DNA of 64,000 nt from Promethearchaeota archaeon (GTDB lineage Archaea; Asgardarchaeota; Heimdallarchaeia; Hodarchaeales; Hodarchaeaceae): the NCBI GenBank assembly GCA_048938105.1, contig JBHLMN010000012.1:141158-205157 (forward strand), written 5' to 3'. Made by a program: the position numbers and the translations under genes. A model generated the notes under the pieces. That model was not told the origin of the DNA. It ran no database searches and was given only the letters and a program-made list of their open reading frames with translations. The stretch's first letter is position 1. Each line of letters starts with the position of its first letter. This document shows, piece after piece, positions 1,250 to 63,880 of this stretch.

Positions 1250-2950
1250 ATGTACGTTCCTAAATTCGTTGAACTCTATTATCTTCGTTTTTTACGGCAT
1301 AAAACTGTTTTTGGGCTTTCTATTATACTTTTTTCTGCTATCACTCTATTTTTCCCGTTAATTTATCCTGGCGAAGAGTCAATGCAGAATATTGTAATTT
1401 ATTATGAGAGATTTGTCGGAGAACTTGAATATGATAATCCTGGATTTCATATATGGACAATTATTGCAGCAGGTATGGTAATTAGTATTTATTTACCACT
1501 GACAGCCATCCTTCTTGGAGTCAATATTTTGCCAATTGCTGAGAAGGATGGGAAAGAACTCTTATTTTCGACACCTAAATCACTTACAAAGGATTTTCTA
1601 GAGAATTCAATTCTATTAATTAGCTTAATTTGGCTTATTTGCATTCCAAGTTACCTATTATCATTATTTTTTCTTCTCATTAATAATAATGTTGATTCAA
1701 TTGTAAATTTAACAATTAGCTTTGTTATTGGAGGATTTCTTGCCAGTTTTATTGCTTTTCTAACTGCTTTTGGTTGTTCATTTTCCTTCTCTAAAAGAAT
1801 AGGTTATCTTTTTGGTGGAGGTTATACTGTAATGGGATTTTTTTCAGATATGGCTTTAAGAAATAATGAAGATTTTGAGGCCCTGTTGGAATTAAACCTA
1901 TTTTCCAGAGCTAAAAGTACCCAAAATGCGATCATGGGAACTTGGAATGAGGAATTCCTTCTTTTTACACTCCTCCTAATAATCATTTTGATTATTCTGT
2001 CCATTTTATTGATCTATCGAAAGGATTTCATTGAAGGTGGTTATAGAAAATCAATAATTGATGAACCTGGGATAGAAGGTCAAAAGATCACTGAAAAATT
2101 TTCAATAATCAAGCTTCCTCTTGATAAGCTAATTGGAAGTCTCGGATGGAGATTTCCTGCTTTACGTGATCAATTACATTCAATGGTTGGAATAATGACT
2201 GTCTTTTTAATAGTTACAATTGGTCTTACAATTATGCAAGGAGCTACATACGAAGGAGAGGTAAAAACAGCTGCTACTTTTGCTAGCATTGATATCCCCT
2301 TTATTGATGCAGCCTTATTCAATTATAAACTAAAACCAACCCTAGAAGGTTGGTTTACCCTTGAGTTTCTGGCCTGGGCTTGGATGATACCTTTTGGCCC
2401 TTTTATACTAATTGTTATAAACAATATTATTTTCAGAGACAAAAAAGAGCGAATCGCAGAAATCACATGGGTACTCCCACAAAGTGAAACAAAAATAATG
2501 TTCAATAGAACTATTGCTGCATTAATCGGTCTTATAACCTTGTTCATTTTTAGTTTTCTAGCTTTTACTCTTGTGGATTTTGGGCTTGAAAATAATGGTG
2601 ATCTCGTTAATGCAGCTGCAAGCTATTTGATCTTTATGTGGGGGTACTGTGTGTTTTTCATTGCTTTTCTATCCTTAGCACTTCTGGTTCCTTATAGACA
2701 TGCTCAAAAAACGTTATTACTCGGATTTACTATCAGTATTCTTCTTCTTTTAGCTGGATTTATAACTGATAACTTCTTACTGCTGGCTTTAACTCCATTA
2801 AGCTATTTTGACTATATGGGGATATTTTTAGGCGAAAAAACTTTGATAGATGTTCTACCTAATGCTTTGATTTGTTCATCTATTGTTATCGTATTCTATG
2901 TTGTTGTACTAAAGAAAATTGTATCCACGAGAGATAGATTAGTTCAATAG
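1250..2950 (+). CDS. ABC exporter permease with duplicated membrane domain
   Basis: About 12 hydrophobic segments in two halves; directly follows the ATPase; GGAGG upstream. Confidence 0.8.
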   Translation: MYVPKFVELYYLRFLRHKTVFGLSIILFSAITLFFPLIYPGEESMQNIVIYYERFVGELEYDNPGFHIWTIIAAGMVISIYLPLTAILLGVNILPIAEKDGKELLFSTPKSLTKDFLENSILLISLIWLICIPSYLLSLFFLLINNNVDSIVNLTISFVIGGFLASFIAFLTAFGCSFSFSKRIGYLFGGGYTVMGFFSDMALRNNEDFEALLELNLFSRAKSTQNAIMGTWNEEFLLFTLLLIIILIILSILLIYRKDFIEGGYRKSIIDEPGIEGQKITEKFSIIKLPLDKLIGSLGWRFPALRDQLHSMVGIMTVFLIVTIGLTIMQGATYEGEVKTAATFASIDIPFIDAALFNYKLKPTLEGWFTLEFLAWAWMIPFGPFILIVINNIIFRDKKERIAEITWVLPQSETKIMFNRTIAALIGLITLFIFSFLAFTLVDFGLENNGDLVNAAASYLIFMWGYCVFFIAFLSLALLVPYRHAQKTLLLGFTISILLLLAGFITDNFLLLALTPLSYFDYMGIFLGEKTLIDVLPNALICSSIVIVFYVVVLKKIVSTRDRLVQ

Positions 2951-2990
2951 TCTTCTTTCTCTTTTTTTCTTTTATACTAAGAGATAAATA

Positions 2991-3632
2991 TCATATCAAA
3001 GAGAATTGAATCACTACAAAGAGCATGATACTAAATGTAATTACTGAAATCACTGTGTCGAATTTTCCTGTCTTTAGAAATGGGATAAATAATGGAGTTT
3101 TGCTTTTATAACTAGTATAATCAGCGCCAAATTTCTTCAATAGGTACTGATCTTCTATAAGTGCAAGAATAATATAAGCCAGTAGTTGTAAATACCATAG
3201 TATTATTGTTTCTTCCGCTGACAGCCAACTCATACCAAAAAAGAAAGTAATATAAAAATAACTCCACCCTGTCAAGCCAATTGTCAAAAGTAGAAGACCA
3301 GTATACTGGGGATGTCTTATAAATCGATAAGGGCCAGAGGTGACTAATCCCCTTCTCTTTTTTACGCCGAGATAAACAATTGAATAAATTATCAATACAA
3401 CGCTTATCATAATCAAAATTTTCCCAAAGAATACCTCATTAAAATTGAGAAGGCTGGCATAGCCTTCAATGATACTGCTAGAAAGATTGGGAACCAAGGC
3501 ACCCAATAACAGAATTACAGGAGCAGCCATGAGTGGTATCCATACCCAGATTCCTGGAAGTTGCTGAACTAAAAGAAATAAATATCCAGCCGTGCCAAAA
3601 ACAATAGCTTGAGCTCTCTCTAGTTTTTTCAT
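2991..3632 (-). CDS. Isoprenylcysteine carboxyl methyltransferase/PEMT-family membrane methyltransferase
   Basis: LVTSGPYRFIRHPQY motif and E-x-x-L...FG..Y..Y tail. Confidence 0.85.
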   Translation of the reverse strand: MKKLERAQAIVFGTAGYLFLLVQQLPGIWVWIPLMAAPVILLLGALVPNLSSSIIEGYASLLNFNEVFFGKILIMISVVLIIYSIVYLGVKKRRGLVTSGPYRFIRHPQYTGLLLLTIGLTGWSYFYITFFFGMSWLSAEETIILWYLQLLAYIILALIEDQYLLKKFGADYTSYKSKTPLFIPFLKTGKFDTVISVITFSIMLFVVIQFSLI

Positions 3633-57470: not shown

Positions 57471-58151
57471 TCATTTCGGTTTCTTTGCTTTCAACTTGGT
57501 TTTGGGGATTTTAGCCTTTATATCCTCAAAAATAGGTGGTGGAGTAATTTTTTTCTTCACAGGGGTTTTCATGTGAATTTTTGGGGGTGGAGGTTGGTTA
57601 ATTGAAGTTTTATTTTCCTTTTTTCCTCCCATTATGGGATGTTTATTTGAGCCTTTTTTTGGTATTTTCCTTTGAATTTTTGGGGGTGGTCTATTGACTG
57701 TGTTTGATAAGGCTTTTTTTGAATGAACTACTCCTGTTGACCGAGGTATCGTATTAATTTTGTTAATCTGTTTAGGAACTGGTGTTTTCTTATTTAGAGC
57801 TGACTTTTTACTAGTACTATTTGGAATTAATCCTTTATTTGAGGGAGATTTCGCTTCATAAGGAACAGATTCCTTTATTGGAGGAAGAGTAGATTTAAAA
57901 GAATCTTTTTTATTTTGGTCAAAACTCCCATGGTCTGAGGGTAGTTTTACCTCATCCTTTGCGATTCCTCCTCTCTGCTTCGGTGGAGGAAGTTCAAATG
58001 ATTCAACATCATATTTTTCAGGTGTCTTCTGTTTGATTTCTTGTTCTCTAGAACTCACGGGAATTTTACTCTTGATTTTGTCACTAGGTTTTTTCTCGCG
58101 TATTTTTTGTCTGGCCAATGTATTCTCAGAATCCTTGACTGGGTTTATCAA
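57471..58151 (-). CDS. Lys/Pro-rich low-complexity protein
   Basis: Repeated PPPK/PPPI motifs; no hydrophobic core; TTG start; last gene of the co-directional ubiquitin cluster. Confidence 0.55.
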   Translation of the reverse strand: MINPVKDSENTLARQKIREKKPSDKIKSKIPVSSREQEIKQKTPEKYDVESFELPPPKQRGGIAKDEVKLPSDHGSFDQNKKDSFKSTLPPIKESVPYEAKSPSNKGLIPNSTSKKSALNKKTPVPKQINKINTIPRSTGVVHSKKALSNTVNRPPPKIQRKIPKKGSNKHPIMGGKKENKTSINQPPPPKIHMKTPVKKKITPPPIFEDIKAKIPKTKLKAKKPK

Positions 58152-58222: not shown

Positions 58223-58822
58223 TTATCGACTTAATAAAAATCCTATTCCTGAAAAAAGAAAGAATAATCCATATAGAACTCCAATTAAATCAAAAATGAT
58301 AAATCCTGTTAATAGGAATAAGATACCAAATACAAAAAATGTGAAAAGTGCTGTCCATTCAGCAGATGGTCCTCTCTCCGATTGGGAGGTTAATCTAATG
58401 AATTTATATCGTGTGAAACTTCTTATCAAAAGTGCTGTGGATACTGCAAGGTAAGGAAATGCTAAAATTGATGCGAGTGTTATTCGAAGCTGAATAAAAT
58501 CCTCAGCTGGTAAAATCTCGATATTAAATGTTAATAATGCTTCTTGTCCAGGAGGGAAAAGAGGACTAGTGAGTAATACGCATAATGGAATGATATTTGC
58601 CAATGAAAAGAAGTATATTTCATTTAACGTAGCTTTTACGTCTATATAGTATAATAGTCTTAGGAAATAAAAGATTGTGATCGTTGTATAGAATGTTAAA
58701 AATACTAGACTTAATGCGATATTATCCTCATCTCTAATGAAAAAGAATATACTTGCAGCGAGACCCATGAGGAATACAAAATACGCAATTGAATGTCGTG
58801 AAACGATCCTGATTACCTCCAA
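58223..58822 (-). CDS. About 6-TM membrane protein overlapping the RING gene
   Basis: Six hydrophobic segments; start overlaps the RING gene end by 10 nt. Confidence 0.7.
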   Translation of the reverse strand: MEVIRIVSRHSIAYFVFLMGLAASIFFFIRDEDNIALSLVFLTFYTTITIFYFLRLLYYIDVKATLNEIYFFSLANIIPLCVLLTSPLFPPGQEALLTFNIEILPAEDFIQLRITLASILAFPYLAVSTALLIRSFTRYKFIRLTSQSERGPSAEWTALFTFFVFGILFLLTGFIIFDLIGVLYGLFFLFSGIGFLLSR

Positions 58823-59967
58823 CGACTGTTTAGATGATTATTTTGATACATTTTAATTAATTTCTCATAACTTTTCCCCGAAAGCCGATACATTTTCTCT
58901 GTTGAAAGTGGTTTATTGCAGCGGGAGCAGATATTCGCCACACTCAACCATTTCTCCAGTTCATGTGAATGTGCTGGGTGTCCGCAGTGGGGGCATATGA
59001 CAACTCGTTTGTTTGCCTCTGTAGGAAATTCATAACAAAAAATACAACGAAAATCATCATCTGTTAAATGTTGTCCTGCAGGTATGAGTTTTGAAAGAAT
59101 TGCTGGAGGTATTTTTTCAATACGAGTGATATTAACCCCTGTATCTATTCCTGGAACAATATTCACTAAATTATGAGTTGTAGGGCGTGTTCTGATTATT
59201 GTTTGAGCTGAAGTTGGTCGCACTACTGTTGATAGACCACTTCGAGAAGGTTCTAGTTGTCTACTTGGTGAAGAAGGTGTTTGGGGTGCTCTGCTTCGAC
59301 TAGTTTGTCTAGTTAAAGAACGTTGGGGTCTCCTCACAGGTATTCGACGGATTGGGACTAAGATAATCTTTAGTACATAATGTTGCAGAAATAAAATAAA
59401 ACTTATTGATACAAATCCTAATCCACTGAGCTCTATGGATCCTGTTTCGATCCAATAGAAGCTTAAAATTAAAATCATCCCAAAATTATATATAATAACT
59501 AATTCATTTTGATACTTCTTTCTAAAGACGAATATTACTGGATAACGACCAGAATAATATTTTCGGATGAGTAATAATAGGAAAATGAAGGGTGGTAATA
59601 CAAAAACTATACTGAATAGATTTAGAAATAAAAAAAATCTATCTATGTTGAGAAAATTAATGTTAAGTGTCATTTCAAGAAGAGATGTTTGAAAAAAACC
59701 TTCTTCTCCTAATGATGCGTGTTGAGTGAGAAATGTTCCCCCTAATGCAACTAATGATGGAATTAAGATGAATAATGCAGAGGCGATTGGTGCATTAAAA
59801 CGTTGAAAGTATTGCCACTCATCAAGAAATTTAATGGATAATACGATTACTAAAGTAATATAAAGAATGGTTAGGGCTACTTCTGTTTGTTGTTCAGTAA
59901 TTAATGTGAGTACCACGAAAACGAATCCTACTACACAAATGGAAAGATAAACATTTCGTCTATCCAA
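58813..59967 (-). CDS. Polytopic membrane protein with C-terminal RING-type zinc finger (putative E3 ligase)
   Basis: About 6 TM, R/P/S/T-rich linker, CIFC-x13-CPHCGHPAHSHELEKW-x6-CSRC; in an operon with E1/E2. Confidence 0.8.
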   Translation of the reverse strand: MDRRNVYLSICVVGFVFVVLTLITEQQTEVALTILYITLVIVLSIKFLDEWQYFQRFNAPIASALFILIPSLVALGGTFLTQHASLGEEGFFQTSLLEMTLNINFLNIDRFFLFLNLFSIVFVLPPFIFLLLLIRKYYSGRYPVIFVFRKKYQNELVIIYNFGMILILSFYWIETGSIELSGLGFVSISFILFLQHYVLKIILVPIRRIPVRRPQRSLTRQTSRSRAPQTPSSPSRQLEPSRSGLSTVVRPTSAQTIIRTRPTTHNLVNIVPGIDTGVNITRIEKIPPAILSKLIPAGQHLTDDDFRCIFCYEFPTEANKRVVICPHCGHPAHSHELEKWLSVANICSRCNKPLSTEKMYRLSGKSYEKLIKMYQNNHLNSRWR

Positions 59968-59985: not shown

Positions 59986-60894
59986 TTATTTTTCATGGTC
60001 ATATTCTAGAAACATACGGCCTTTCTCCCTTGTGAGGGGAAGTAGCGTATTGATCATTTCAGGAAGACTTTCTAAGGGACAATTCAATACTCTATAATGA
60101 GGTTCTTCCCATGTCTTCATATCTTCCTTTAAACGAAAGATCTTGAACCCATAAGAACTACTGGATATCTTTGTAGGGTCAATAACCAAAGCAATGGGGG
60201 CAGTAATTTGTGAATTCCGTGCCCCAAGCCGTTGATATCGAACTTGAGTCTTATAATCCGTTTGACTCATGAATGCTCCATATGAAGGATGAGAATGGTA
60301 CCATCCAAGAATAATCTGGTTTTTATTATGAGATTTAATCTCATTATATACTCTAACCATGGATTGTGGGTCGTGAATTTGAGTATTCACATTTGTTCCA
60401 TGCCCTATAGGAAAAGCATCTTCAATAACTAAACAGGCTAATGGAGTATCATTACTTTCTATATGGCCTGTAAGAAGTCCAATCACTTCTATCCAATCTC
60501 TTTGGGGTACATCTGGATTTGCATACTTCAACGCATGTAAGGCTAGTTTAATATAAGCTTTAAGATGAATTTTCACTCGAGAAGGTTCTGATTCTGGATT
60601 TAAATCATTCAAACTTAAATCAACACTTTCTAAGTCCTCTAAAATTCCATTCTGTTCCTCTCTTTGAGTAAGTTCGGATTTAGGAATAATATTTTCATCT
60701 AGTCTTAAAGAAATTAGATCAGAAGGTTTTATCTTTATTTTTTTGTCTCTTAAAGTTTCAAACCCTGTATTAGGCTGATAATTGAAAGCAGGGAATTTTA
60801 ATGTAAAAGAGAAAGTCTCAGGATCAAAGGTTAACGCAAGGTCTCTAAGTAATATCTCGAAAATATTTTGCAGATCCTTTTTCTCTTTTGACAT
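59986..60894 (-). CDS. JAMM/MPN+ metalloisopeptidase (Rpn11-like deconjugase)
   Basis: EVIGLL...GWYHSHPSYGAFMSQTD, ALVIDP; N-terminal extension of about 100 aa. Confidence 0.92.
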   Translation of the reverse strand: MSKEKKDLQNIFEILLRDLALTFDPETFSFTLKFPAFNYQPNTGFETLRDKKIKIKPSDLISLRLDENIIPKSELTQREEQNGILEDLESVDLSLNDLNPESEPSRVKIHLKAYIKLALHALKYANPDVPQRDWIEVIGLLTGHIESNDTPLACLVIEDAFPIGHGTNVNTQIHDPQSMVRVYNEIKSHNKNQIILGWYHSHPSYGAFMSQTDYKTQVRYQRLGARNSQITAPIALVIDPTKISSSSYGFKIFRLKEDMKTWEEPHYRVLNCPLESLPEMINTLLPLTREKGRMFLEYDHEK

Positions 60895-60925: not shown

Positions 60926-61453
60926 TCACCACTTCTTATTTGCATATTTTTTGGTAATTTTGTGAGCCTTTTTAATGAAATTCTTCCTGTTGCTCAAATA
61001 TTCTTGAGCTGCCTTTTTGTTGAATACATCATGAGGATTTGTATAAGCCGTATCAACATTAAACATAGCAAGGATGGAATAGATTATTGTACCAATGTTT
61101 TTTGATGGAGACCAACCATCTGGTCTTCCAATTAGATCAGGGTCAACAAGCGCTAAGCAAATATTCCGTTTTCCCTTATATTCATCAGGTTTCGGCCAAA
61201 AGTTCGGATGCCAGATGGGTGTATGTAAACGAACAAAAGGGGGAGAATAGGGATAATTTGGGCCAAATTTTATTTCTAATTTGAATTTTCCTTTCTCGTA
61301 CGGAGTTCCTTTAGGCCCCTCAAGAAGGACTGCAAGGTGCTCTACCGATTTTTTCCCGCCTGGGAATGCTTTTAGTTGTTTGATGGTTTTTTGCTTATAT
61401 AACTTCTTTAATTGATTATAATCATCAGCAATCCTTTTAATGCGTATTGACAT
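60926..61453 (-). CDS. Ubiquitin-conjugating enzyme E2
   Basis: GPKGTPYEKGKF, YPYSPP, WHPN...ICL, WSPS, N..AA. Confidence 0.93.
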   Translation of the reverse strand: MSIRIKRIADDYNQLKKLYKQKTIKQLKAFPGGKKSVEHLAVLLEGPKGTPYEKGKFKLEIKFGPNYPYSPPFVRLHTPIWHPNFWPKPDEYKGKRNICLALVDPDLIGRPDGWSPSKNIGTIIYSILAMFNVDTAYTNPHDVFNKKAAQEYLSNRKNFIKKAHKITKKYANKKW

Positions 61454-61469: not shown

Positions 61470-62720
61470 TTAGTTAATTTTTAGTGTTAAATAGATCTGA
61501 GTACCATCCTCAAACCCTGTGATTAAAATTGTCTCGTGGTTTCGAATTTTAGCCTCAAAAAGGCTTAAGTTCCAATCAACCTCACTAACCTCTGAAGAGT
61601 CAATACGAAAGACACTCGGAGGGAATTCTGGGTCGATTTGGAGTTTTTTTCCTTGAGCTAATTTCGTAATGATTTTCTTCAATTGAAATTTTGATTTTAC
61701 CTTTATTTTGTAAAGAGGGGTACGAGTATTACCACACATGGTACAATCTGGATTCCGTGGTTTTTCCATCTCATAGAATTTTCCAGTTAGTCCATTATAA
61801 ATTACATAATTAAGTTGAAGAGAACCTAATTTCTTTTCATTTTCGGGAGTGTGTAGATGGTGAAGGATTTTCACAGCTTCTTGAGATTGTAATGAGGCCA
61901 TTACGCAATTAATGGTGATTACAGTAGCTTCATGATTATCAACTATTTGAATAACCTGATCTGTCGAGAATGGTTGAGATACTGGAAAATGGACTTTAAG
62001 TAAGGTATTTGCGTGTTCCTTAACTTCATTGATTTCATTCGGTTTCAATATATCAACTGGCCGGCCATGATTCTGTTCAAATTGTAGTTGCCCTTTTAAT
62101 ATACAATGTGCAGGTTTACGTGGCACACCAACTAATGTACAAGCTCCTAACTGATCTTGTTCGCGTTCTGTTAATGGATCGCATTCTAAACAAGCGTTAC
62201 TGAAAGGAAAAACGCAGTAGACGTGGCCATTATAAGCTGCTGTTCCTGCATCAATTAAAGGTTTATGATTGTGAACAGCTCTTCGATTTAGTTCCGATCG
62301 GGCCTCAATTGAGTCTAAACCTGCGATATAGAGATCCGCTTCATGATAGAGATGGGGTGGAAGGTCTTGCAGAGCACAATTATATGCTTCAACTGTAATA
62401 AAAGGATTCATTTCTTGAAGTCGTTTAGCAGCGAATTTCGCCTTAGAAATTCCTTCTGATGCTCCAATAAATAGTATTTGTCGGTTAAGATTGGAATATT
62501 CGACCGTATCAAGATCCACTAAGATTAATTTTCCAACACTGACCATTGCTAAATTTTTCGCAACTTCTACGCCAAGTCCACCAATCCCAGCAATTAGAAT
62601 AGTACTTTCTTTTAATGTTTCTTGTCGCCATCCTGGGAGGCGAAATTGGCGATCAAAACGTCGCTTTTCTTCGTCAGTAAATTTTCCACTCGTGAAATCT
62701 GATACACTTGACATTTTCAC
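61470..62720 (-). CDS. Ubiquitin-like activating enzyme E1 (Uba2/Uba3-type catalytic-Cys insert)
   Basis: RFDRQ, GIGGLG, DLDTVEYSNLNRQ, CLEC and CTMC zinc pairs, GACTLVGVPRKPAHCI catalytic motif, C-terminal UFD-like segment. Confidence 0.92.
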   Translation of the reverse strand: MKMSSVSDFTSGKFTDEEKRRFDRQFRLPGWRQETLKESTILIAGIGGLGVEVAKNLAMVSVGKLILVDLDTVEYSNLNRQILFIGASEGISKAKFAAKRLQEMNPFITVEAYNCALQDLPPHLYHEADLYIAGLDSIEARSELNRRAVHNHKPLIDAGTAAYNGHVYCVFPFSNACLECDPLTEREQDQLGACTLVGVPRKPAHCILKGQLQFEQNHGRPVDILKPNEINEVKEHANTLLKVHFPVSQPFSTDQVIQIVDNHEATVITINCVMASLQSQEAVKILHHLHTPENEKKLGSLQLNYVIYNGLTGKFYEMEKPRNPDCTMCGNTRTPLYKIKVKSKFQLKKIITKLAQGKKLQIDPEFPPSVFRIDSSEVSEVDWNLSLFEAKIRNHETILITGFEDGTQIYLTLKIN

Positions 62721-62735
62721 TCAACTTCAATATCT

Positions 62736-63074
62736 CTATCCAGCTGTTGAAACAGGGATGATCAAGCACTCTAAACCATTCTCAATATCATAATTAGATA
62801 ACACATCATCTCTATCTAGGGTACGACCACTGATAGAGATGTGAAAATCCTGTGGATCAAGACCGAAAATTCCTCCAAGTGTTTCTTTTAATTCTGAAAC
62901 GCCCATTTCAGGATCAACTGTGAGTTTTTCTAGCTTTTCACCTGGACCTATTGTCGATCTAAAGAACAGTGTTATATGGGTTCCACTAGGTACTTTAGTT
63001 CTCATTTGTGTTTCTACGATCTCTTCTTCTTCTTCTTCGATTTCCAATTCATCAAAATCCTCATTTTCAGACAT
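62736..63074 (-). CDS. Ubiquitin-like protein 2 (acidic N-tail, C-terminus STAG)
   Basis: Beta-grasp pattern VSELKETL...SGRTLD...LSNYDI.NG; ATG at 63074 with GGAGG 8 nt upstream; terminal Gly then TAG. Confidence 0.88.
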   Translation of the reverse strand: MSENEDFDELEIEEEEEEIVETQMRTKVPSGTHITLFFRSTIGPGEKLEKLTVDPEMGVSELKETLGGIFGLDPQDFHISISGRTLDRDDVLSNYDIENGLECLIIPVSTAG

Positions 63075-63250
63075 TGAATAATCCTCCATTCCAATTTCTT
63101 CTGTTGGAAGCATTTTAGTACATTTAATGTAGTAAAAAAGCTTTATAGGACGGTTTTTTACTGGTAAATAAATATCTGTTTCAATCATTTTAATTATTCC
63201 TAATTAATGTATGATTTCATTTTCAAGGAATTTTGAAAGTAGAAATCGTG

Positions 63251-63454
63251 CTAGACATAAATTTCATTGGGGGAAATAGCTTCAAGGGACTGAAGAATCC
63301 AAAGATTTGCCCGTATATAATAATCGATTGACGAGATAATAATGTCTAGATCATTTCTAGACCCTTGGTGTATTTTTTGATTCTTCTTTACCTTTTCACG
63401 TTCATACATTGCATTAACTATTGACTTGACGAGACTCTCATTTATAGCTGTCAT
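63251..63454 (-). CDS. Small 67-aa hypothetical protein between the two Ubl genes
   Basis: MTAINESLVKSIV...; ATG at 63454 preceded by AGAGGGG. Confidence 0.45.
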   Translation of the reverse strand: MTAINESLVKSIVNAMYEREKVKKNQKIHQGSRNDLDIIISSIDYYIRANLWILQSLEAISPNEIYV

Positions 63455-63532
63455 TCGATAACCCCTCTTAGGAAATGAGAAAGAAAGGATGAGAATTTTC
63501 TCTCTGTTTAAAAACATGAGAAAGAAAATCGT

Positions 63533-63880
63533 TCATCCTGCTGTACTGTGGGGAATCAAAAGAATTTCGTCACCATTATCGATTCCATAGTCACCAATTG
63601 GAGCTGACTCATCTAAAGTGCGACCAGCGTGGCTTAAGTGGAAATCATTGGGATTCAAGCCAAATATATTGGCTAAGGTGTCTCTGACATCTCTAACTGG
63701 TGTATTTTCACCTACACTGAGTTTTTCGGTTCGTTCAGGTCCAACGGTAGATTTAAAAAATACATTCTTTTTTGGTCCTGAAGCAATGCCTGATACTGGG
63801 GTTTTAGATTGTGTAGGGGTTTTAGATTGGATTGTTGTCTGTTCTTCTACATCGAAGTCTAAATCTTCAAAATCACTCAT
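63533..63880 (-). CDS. Ubiquitin-like protein 1 (acidic N-tail, C-terminus STAG)
   Basis: PVRDVRDTL...HAGRTLD...IGDYGIDNGD.ILLI; terminal Gly then TGA. Confidence 0.88.
   Translation of the reverse strand: MSDFEDLDFDVEEQTTIQSKTPTQSKTPVSGIASGPKKNVFFKSTVGPERTEKLSVGENTPVRDVRDTLANIFGLNPNDFHLSHAGRTLDESAPIGDYGIDNGDEILLIPHSTAG

Follow-up and report, generated by a model that had tools for sequence, protein, structure and literature searches.

The window analyzed here is a 64,000-nucleotide stretch of contig JBHLMN010000012.1 from a Promethearchaeota archaeon. At positions 58813–59967 of its minus strand, which also carries the other window features described below, an open reading frame (ORF) with a TTG start encodes a 384-amino-acid protein that combines a polytopic membrane domain with a C-terminal RING-type zinc finger. 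We designate this protein TM-RING. It is probably the membrane-anchored RING-type E3 of an Asgard-wide operon that also encodes a ubiquitin-like modifier (Ubl) ending in -STAG, an E1, an E2, and a JAB isopeptidase. A first-pass annotation of the DNA had proposed a membrane E3 ligase at this position, and the proposal is supported by the topology of the protein, the fold of its RING, conservation of the E2 contacts, and linkage of the gene to Ubl, E1, E2, and JAB. It is from this combination of features that we infer ligase activity. Archaeal RING proteins encoded in operons act as E3s in vitro (PMC5654768; bioRxiv 10.1101/2023.07.25.550441).

The membrane domain of TM-RING (residues 1–206; 59350–59967) contains six transmembrane (TM) helices and two β-hairpins, in agreement with the roughly 200 residues and six helices that had been read from the sequence initially. 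Kyte-Doolittle windows place the TM segments at residues 6–24, 30–48, 61–79, 110–134, 155–173, and 183–206, and six long helices appear at these positions in two AlphaFold2 runs, one of the whole protein and one of the membrane domain alone. The mean predicted local distance difference test score (pLDDT) of the whole protein is 74, with values of ~90 for the membrane part and ~83 for the RING; the membrane domain modeled separately reaches a pLDDT of 91.8 and a predicted TM-score of 0.86. In the model, one β-hairpin (residues 95–116) lies on the outside face, and the other (residues 144–153) lies on the cytoplasmic side within a conserved YYSGRYPxIFIFRK loop. Across 58 sequences gathered phylum-wide, conservation is highest in the RING, followed by TM1 and the two cytoplasmic loops, L2 and L4.

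The distribution of charge in these 58 sequences defines the orientation of the protein. Mean numbers of Lys plus Arg are 1.4 for the N-terminus, 2.3 for L2, 5.5 for L4, and 2.9 for the segment following TM6, as compared to 0.2, 0.7, and 0.5 for L1, L3, and L5, respectively. The positive-inside rule is satisfied in 58 of 58 members, with more Lys and Arg on the inside loops. The predicted topology is therefore one in which both termini lie inside, so that the RING faces the cytoplasm, as would be expected of a membrane E3.

The cytoplasmic module (residues 285–384; 58816–59115) consists of a conserved pre-RING segment, the RING core, and a C-terminal strand and helix. The core (C308–C350; 58918–59046) was delimited from the translation and its invariant ligands and follows the pattern C-x2-C-x13-C-x2-C-x4-H-x2-E-x3-W-x6-C-x2-C. 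Written out in full, the motif in this protein reads C308-x2-C311-x13-C325-x2-C328-x-H330-x2-H333-x-H335-E336-x3-W340-x6-C347-x2-C350. The Cys/His string described in the first-pass annotation is correct letter for letter in this sequence; three of its His residues, however, are not invariant in the family. H327 is conserved in at least 90% of 47 class-level homologues and is replaced by Ser, Asn, Met, or Lys in some distant loci, H330 may be His, Tyr, Arg, Phe, or Lys, and H335 is likewise variable. Because these three positions vary, the conserved signature is C4-H-E-C2. C308, C311, C325, C328, H333, E336, W340, C347, and C350 are each invariant in the 47 homologues, and with nine such positions the predicted zinc-finger motif is not a product of chance. 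The same arrangement, with x13–17 between the second and third Cys, occurs in 18 of 18 genes from other Asgard families. I309 is invariant in an alignment of 22 TM-RING sequences; I309, W340, and the invariant ligand positions are each at least 80% conserved in the phylum-wide set. We take Ile309 and Trp340 to be the positions that contact E2 in known RINGs, and the expectation that the E2-contact Trp had been kept is borne out.

Of the eight metal-ligand positions in TM-RING, seven hold a Cys or His that does not vary, and position 6 holds a Glu that is equally invariant; the first reading had noted that the usual Cys is replaced here, with His or Glu available. Ligands 4 and 5 are four residues apart (x4). 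A comparison comes from a paralogous, soluble RING protein of 109 amino acids encoded in the same genome (locus L039, positions 1495–1824, minus strand; G000:C11, ~117575–117829). Its ligand spacing is identical, and it aligns with the TM-RING core at a pairwise E-value of 9e-6 with a His opposite Glu336, which places Glu336 at ligand position 6 in a RING of the C4-H-(H/E)-C2 type. Glu is a plausible zinc ligand, and Glu336 most likely takes the place of His or Cys in completing the first zinc site as its fourth ligand. Among 163 RING proteins collected by strict spacing, position 6 is Glu in 150, His in 12, and Ala in one, and both Glu and Trp occupy the TM-RING positions in 150 of the 163. 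Four proteins of 184–452 amino acids that are not members of the six-TM family (P0154, P0159, P0170, and P0172) also have Glu at ligand 6; replacement of His by Glu therefore recurs among RINGs with this spacing. The gene for the soluble RING is flanked by an ORF for a 134-amino-acid, coiled-coil-like protein, and an ORF for an Arf/Rab-like small GTPase lies nearby (2345–3019, plus strand).

Models of the C-terminal module matched only RING and U-box structures when searched with Foldseek and VIA-align, among them Rad18, TRIM37, RNF4, RING1B, TRAF6, and CHIP. Foldseek assigned these matches a probability of 1.00, with E-values from 7e-3. The predicted structure of the domain is accordingly a RING/U-box fold. 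By sequence, the solved structure closest to the RING core is the RING-H2 domain of RNF24 (PDB 2ep4), at an E-value of 0.0027 for the single sequence and of 6e-4 when the family profile is used. We also noted that the second half of the RING (58918–58990) weakly resembles the C-terminal zinc finger of IFT121/IFT144 (WDR19). The Pfam model Zf_2nd_IFT121 matches 18 of the 47 members, and the two share the string CPHCxFPAxxSEL. This resemblance was rejected as not significant (best Pfam E 0.005; PDB profile E 0.86) and probably reflects convergence of short zinc-finger motifs.

The membrane domain and the RING module are separated by a linker (residues 207–284; 59116–59349) in which Arg, Pro, Ser, and Thr are abundant and the pLDDT is below 50, in keeping with the disordered linker that had been noted at the outset. 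Its 79 amino acids include 14 Arg but not a single Lys, and its length differs among aligned family members. In the 58 family members, the ratio K/(K+R) is 0.18 in the linkers and 0.54 in the remainder of the same proteins; it averages 0.61, an excess of Lys over Arg, in the long ORFs of the window, and the genome has a G+C content of 33%. Depletion of Lys is strongest in close relatives of the window and less pronounced in distant families. Stretches poor in Lys, or lysine deserts, have been described in components of the ubiquitin system as protection against self-modification (PMC10665810). The Lys-poor linker gives indirect support for a lysine-directed ligase located beside it.

Several observations weigh against the reading of TM-RING as the E3 of the operon. 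The Ubl ends in Ala-Gly rather than Gly-Gly, and its chemistry or its target could be unlike that of classical ubiquitylation. Glu occupies one of the canonical Cys/His ligand positions, which could leave the first zinc site incomplete, and the x4 that separates ligand 4 from ligand 5 is longer than the x2–3 of classical RINGs. The cross-brace zinc geometry is itself a prediction drawn from the fold matches of a model. Finally, none of the 47 members attains the gathering score of a Pfam RING model; the best scores are 15.3 bits for zf-RING_16 (cut-off 27.4) and 14.3 bits for zf-RING_2 (cut-off 27.3). The protein matches no Pfam, NCBIfam, or PADLOC family at threshold, and RINGv is not among the Pfam families that it matches at E ≤0.1. 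As no RING model passes in these members, the database entries for all 56 TM-RING homologues are annotated as hypothetical.

These observations raise the question of whether the zinc finger is catalytic. It could instead serve as a membrane anchor or receptor for Ubl, its conjugates, E2, or JAB, or TM-RING could be a main substrate of the cascade. The absence of a Pfam RING match above threshold and the Glu at ligand 6 are consistent with such a role, as are sub-threshold matches of the finger to Pfam zinc ribbons and to a zinc finger that binds ubiquitin (zf_UBZ, E 0.01–0.07). Structural matches, however, are exclusively to RING/U-box domains of E3s, and both positions of the E2 contact are at least 80% conserved across the phylum. 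TM-RING is also the sole E3-like gene in an operon that is otherwise complete for E1, E2, Ubl, and JAB, and the paucity of Lys in the linker speaks against TM-RING as the intended substrate. We therefore regard a non-catalytic finger as unlikely, although it is the strongest competitor of the E3 interpretation.

The origin of the membrane domain bears on a different alternative. When the TM-RING family profile was compared with 1.84 billion representative proteins, 128 matches were obtained at E ≤1e-3. Approximately 100 of these are proteins of 340–465 amino acids with the same architecture or fragments of such proteins, and those at the tail are short and confined to the RING; the search revealed no relative outside the family and no fused or longer form. 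Foldseek comparison of the membrane domain with solved structures gave no significant match (best E 4.9). VIA-align against 48,161 chains returned a flat list with soluble helical repeats at the top, and a search of the ESM Atlas for look-alikes of residues 1–215 gave no usable match. The TM-RING membrane domain is an orphan that lacks known relatives outside its family.

TM-RING has the architecture of Hrd1, in which a polytopic membrane domain precedes a cytoplasmic RING. If it were a true homologue of Hrd1, gp78, and TRC8, it would represent an archaeal ligase ancestral to the degradation associated with the endoplasmic reticulum (ERAD), with a membrane domain that acts as a retrotranslocation channel. 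Members of the Hrd1/gp78/TRC8 family contain eight TM helices followed soon after the last helix by a C3H2C3 RING-H2. TM-RING, by contrast, has six TM helices, a linker of ~80 amino acids, and a C4-H-E-C2 signature. VIA-align superimposes only TMs 1–4 on residues 143–266 of HRD1 and leaves the RING-proximal helices unmatched, the structural searches gave no significant match to solved Hrd1 or to any other membrane protein, and profile searches recovered no outside relative among the representative proteins and no Hrd1 in the PDB (only RNF24). Common descent with Hrd1 is consequently very improbable, and the likeness is, as the first-pass annotation had maintained, architectural.

TM-RING is accompanied by a second membrane protein. 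The downstream gene (58223–58822) begins with a TTG codon, overlaps the last 10 nucleotides of the TM-RING gene, and encodes a 199-amino-acid protein with six TM helices and no RING. BLASTP of the TM-RING membrane domain against this partner gave no match, and their relation is visible to profile methods only. Comparison by hhalign of a 14-member partner alignment with the TM-RING family yielded a probability of 79.5% and an E-value of 1.5e-5 over 118 collinear columns. In a separate comparison, the columns of the membrane domain aligned with the partner family over 179 collinear columns with a score of 35.1 (P 1.4e-4); the maximum score among 23 reversed or block-shuffled controls was 18.6. 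A direct match of the partner profile to a TM-RING gene was also obtained in another genome (E 8e-6). In the alignment, the partner motif YYxxxKATLNE corresponds to RYYRSYNAPLAS of TM-RING, and LLxRSFTRYxFIR corresponds to LLRRYYSGRYPxIFIFR. On the strength of these profile alignments, the partner is considered a RING-less paralogue of the TM-RING membrane domain.

The partner was found in 53 of 399 Asgard genomes, all of which belong to four families of the window's class (Heimdall/Hodarchaeales-type), and in none elsewhere. Where both genes lie on one contig, it nearly always follows TM-RING directly. In this class, TM-RING probably works as a heteromer with its RING-less paralogue. NCBIfam contains no model for either protein.

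The remainder of the operon comprises the other components of a conjugation cascade. All genes lie on the minus strand in the order Ubl1, a small ORF, Ubl2, E1, E2, JAB, TM-RING, partner, and a Lys/Pro-rich protein; intergenic gaps of 15–31 nucleotides are found at the Ubl, E1, E2, and JAB genes. Ubl1 (63533–63880) and Ubl2 (62736–63188) are modifiers of the ubiquitin family that end in -STAG; they match Pfam ubiquitin with E-values of 7.7e-8 and 1e-4, respectively, and Ubl1 also matches ubiquitin structures in the PDB. The 88-amino-acid product of the ORF between them (63251–63517) has no Pfam match. The adenylating enzyme of the E1-like (ThiF/UBA) type (61470–62720; Pfam ThiF, E 1.3e-52) is followed by an E2 of the UBC fold that contains an HPN motif and a catalytic Cys (60926–61453; Pfam UQ_con, E 5.7e-27) and by a JAB/MPN (JAMM) isopeptidase (59986–60894; Pfam JAB, E 3.1e-15). 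No second RING gene is present within the operon. The last gene (57471–58151) encodes a 226-amino-acid protein of low complexity with KIP-type repeats and conserved basic termini that matches no family and could serve as an accessory factor or as a substrate rich in Lys. A scan for sigma-70 promoters and terminators remained at the level of shuffled sequence, the models being uninformative for an archaeon. Homologues of Ufm1 have been reported in Asgard archaea (PMC12962969). A Ufm1 identity was rejected for the two Ubls of the window, which match ubiquitin in Pfam and the PDB rather than Ufm1.

The order E2-JAB-TM-RING-partner is present in 20 of 20 loci from the same genus, order, or class for which enough sequence was available. 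The Lys/Pro-rich ORF follows the partner in most loci of the same genus and in the class-level locus L019; it does not occur in distant families. We fetched 18 further loci from other Asgard families (L021–L038). Fourteen of these contain Ubl, E1, E2, JAB, and TM-RING in order, one of them on a single-contig genome of 6,035,313 base pairs. Locus L031 contains E1, E2, JAB, and TM-RING with no Ubl detected; L034 and L037 contain all five genes, with Ubl and E1 located beyond the partner gene; and contig ends truncate L023 and L032. Operons of distant families stop at TM-RING, from which we conclude that Ubl, E1, E2, JAB, and TM-RING form the phylum-wide core, whereas the RING-less twin and the Lys/Pro-rich protein are additions at the level of the class.

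In the 18 distant loci, the sequence LLIP[AVFTS]STAG lies at the end of, or within, almost every Ubl ORF of the operon type; a single fusion protein has SRAG. Between one and six residues follow this tail in some Ubls (M, I, YV, GF, KINI, or GISIAS), and these short extensions imply processing by JAB. Loci L022 and L028 encode proteins of ~580 amino acids that end in a Ubl domain of this kind, and other loci have forms of 236–269 amino acids.

TM-RING matches at E ≤1e-3 were found in 247 of 399 Asgard genomes, with the weaker matches at the level of RING-only similarity. At the stricter threshold of E ≤1e-20, the search table contains 184 of the 399 genomes, which are distributed over 12 of 33 Asgard families and include 116 of the 135 genomes of one family. 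Named records that contain TM-RING are mostly Asgard (Hodarchaeota, Heimdallarchaeota, Promethearchaeota, and Promethearchaeia), and the others are labeled "uncultured archaeon". Retention of the same operon order across these 12 families, one of which has it in 116 of its 135 genomes, fits a vertically inherited core system rather than a defense island. A sporadic anti-virus module resembling Bil or CBASS Cap2/Cap3, with the membrane protein as effector or sensor, is the least probable of the alternatives: bacterial E1/E2/JAB/Ubl operons with roles in defense exist and PADLOC weakly matches E1 and JAB to its generic "E1-E2" and "JAB" models, but it returns no match for TM-RING, the partner, E2, or Ubl, and the E2 is a canonical UQ_con protein.

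The interpretation of TM-RING as the membrane-anchored E3 of the operon suggests a working model. The RING would bind the thioester of the operon's E2 and Ubl through Ile309 and Trp340 and promote transfer of Ubl to lysine residues on proteins that lie at, or are embedded in, the cytoplasmic membrane. JAB would trim extended Ubl precursors and reverse conjugation. Loops L2 and L4, together with the RING-less twin in the window's class, may dock substrates or partners.

Membrane-embedded RING ligases underlie ERAD, peroxisomal import, and turnover of surface receptors in eukaryotes. Ubiquitylation of membrane proteins is likewise the logic behind peroxisomal Pex2/10/12 and the sorting of cargo by ESCRT, and the Heimdall/Hodarchaeales-type class is the one closest to eukaryotes. 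It is tempting to propose an Asgard-wide, membrane-integral Ubl ligase with its own non-Gly-Gly modifier that acquired two subunits in this class through duplication of the membrane domain; we advance this full scenario tentatively and consider it possible but doubtful. In a more radical variant of it, the membrane domain could present a lipid head group, and the Ubl with its single terminal Gly would become lipidated, as Atg8 is. If the tags that TM-RING attaches cause membrane proteins to be extracted, degraded, or sorted, ubiquitylation of membrane proteins predates eukaryotes, and the polytopic RING ligases of eukaryotes would have had a functional, and possibly an evolutionary, forerunner in archaea. 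A family found only in Asgard archaea and strictly linked to E1, E2, Ubl, and JAB would place membrane-directed tagging by Ubl in the archaeal ancestors of eukaryotes. The operon of five or six genes would also offer a simple model of membrane ligases that can be reconstituted, including the Glu at the zinc-ligand position and the RING-less subunit.

To our knowledge, the archaeal ubiquitin systems characterized to date use small, soluble RING proteins. The cascade of Caldiarchaeum subterraneum (Ub/E1/E2/srfp/Rpn11) is encoded by an operon that includes a small RING finger protein, and the word "transmembrane" does not occur in a text search of its description (PMC5654768). A Helarchaeial cascade consists of E1, E2, and a RING E3 that was purified as a soluble protein (bioRxiv 10.1101/2023.07.25.550441). 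No archaeal transmembrane RING E3 is described in the literature that we searched, and membrane-bound ligases of this kind are so far known from eukaryotes alone; the "putative E3" of Spang et al. 2015 was not compared. The Caldiarchaeum and Helarchaeial operons share with the operon of the window a Ubl, a ThiF-type E1, a UBC-type E2, a JAMM/Rpn11-like protease, and one RING protein. They differ in that their RING is small and soluble, whereas here it forms the C-terminus of a 384-amino-acid, six-TM protein and is preceded by a long linker. At ligand 6, those proteins have His and TM-RING has Glu, and their modifier ends in Gly-Gly rather than Ala-Gly. The RING-less membrane paralogue is an addition restricted to the window's class.

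Polytopic RING E3s of eukaryotes include Hrd1/gp78/TRC8/RNF145, Pex2/Pex10/Pex12, RNF121/RNF175, and MARCH/Doa10. TM-RING shares with them the principle that a membrane domain places a cytoplasmic RING near membrane substrates. MARCH and Doa10 resemble TM-RING in the order of ligand types, C4 followed by H; however, their RING-CH is N-terminal rather than C-terminal and differs in spacing, and Glu is found at ligand 6 of TM-RING. Membership of TM-RING in either the Hrd1/gp78/TRC8 or the MARCH/Doa10 family was rejected on the basis of TM number, ligand pattern, and placement of the RING. Human RNF24, a single-pass RING-H2 protein, aligns with TM-RING through the segment C-x-H-x2-H-x2-C-x3-W-x6-C-x2-C, including the Trp. 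The match is marginal and spans ~45 residues; RNF24 has Cys in place of Glu, lacks the extra CxxC arrangement, and has an unrelated membrane part. RNF121, for which no structure is known to have been solved, is similar in having a RING-H2 at the C-terminus, after approximately six TM helices. Pex2, Pex10, and Pex12 provide a parallel for the pairing of TM-RING with its twin, since they combine paralogous membrane-RING subunits of which one has a degenerate finger. Set beside the archaeal operons with small, soluble RING proteins, the new elements of the TM-RING family are a novel membrane domain that bears a RING, Glu as ligand 6, a modifier that ends in Ala-Gly, and, in one class, a RING-less subunit.

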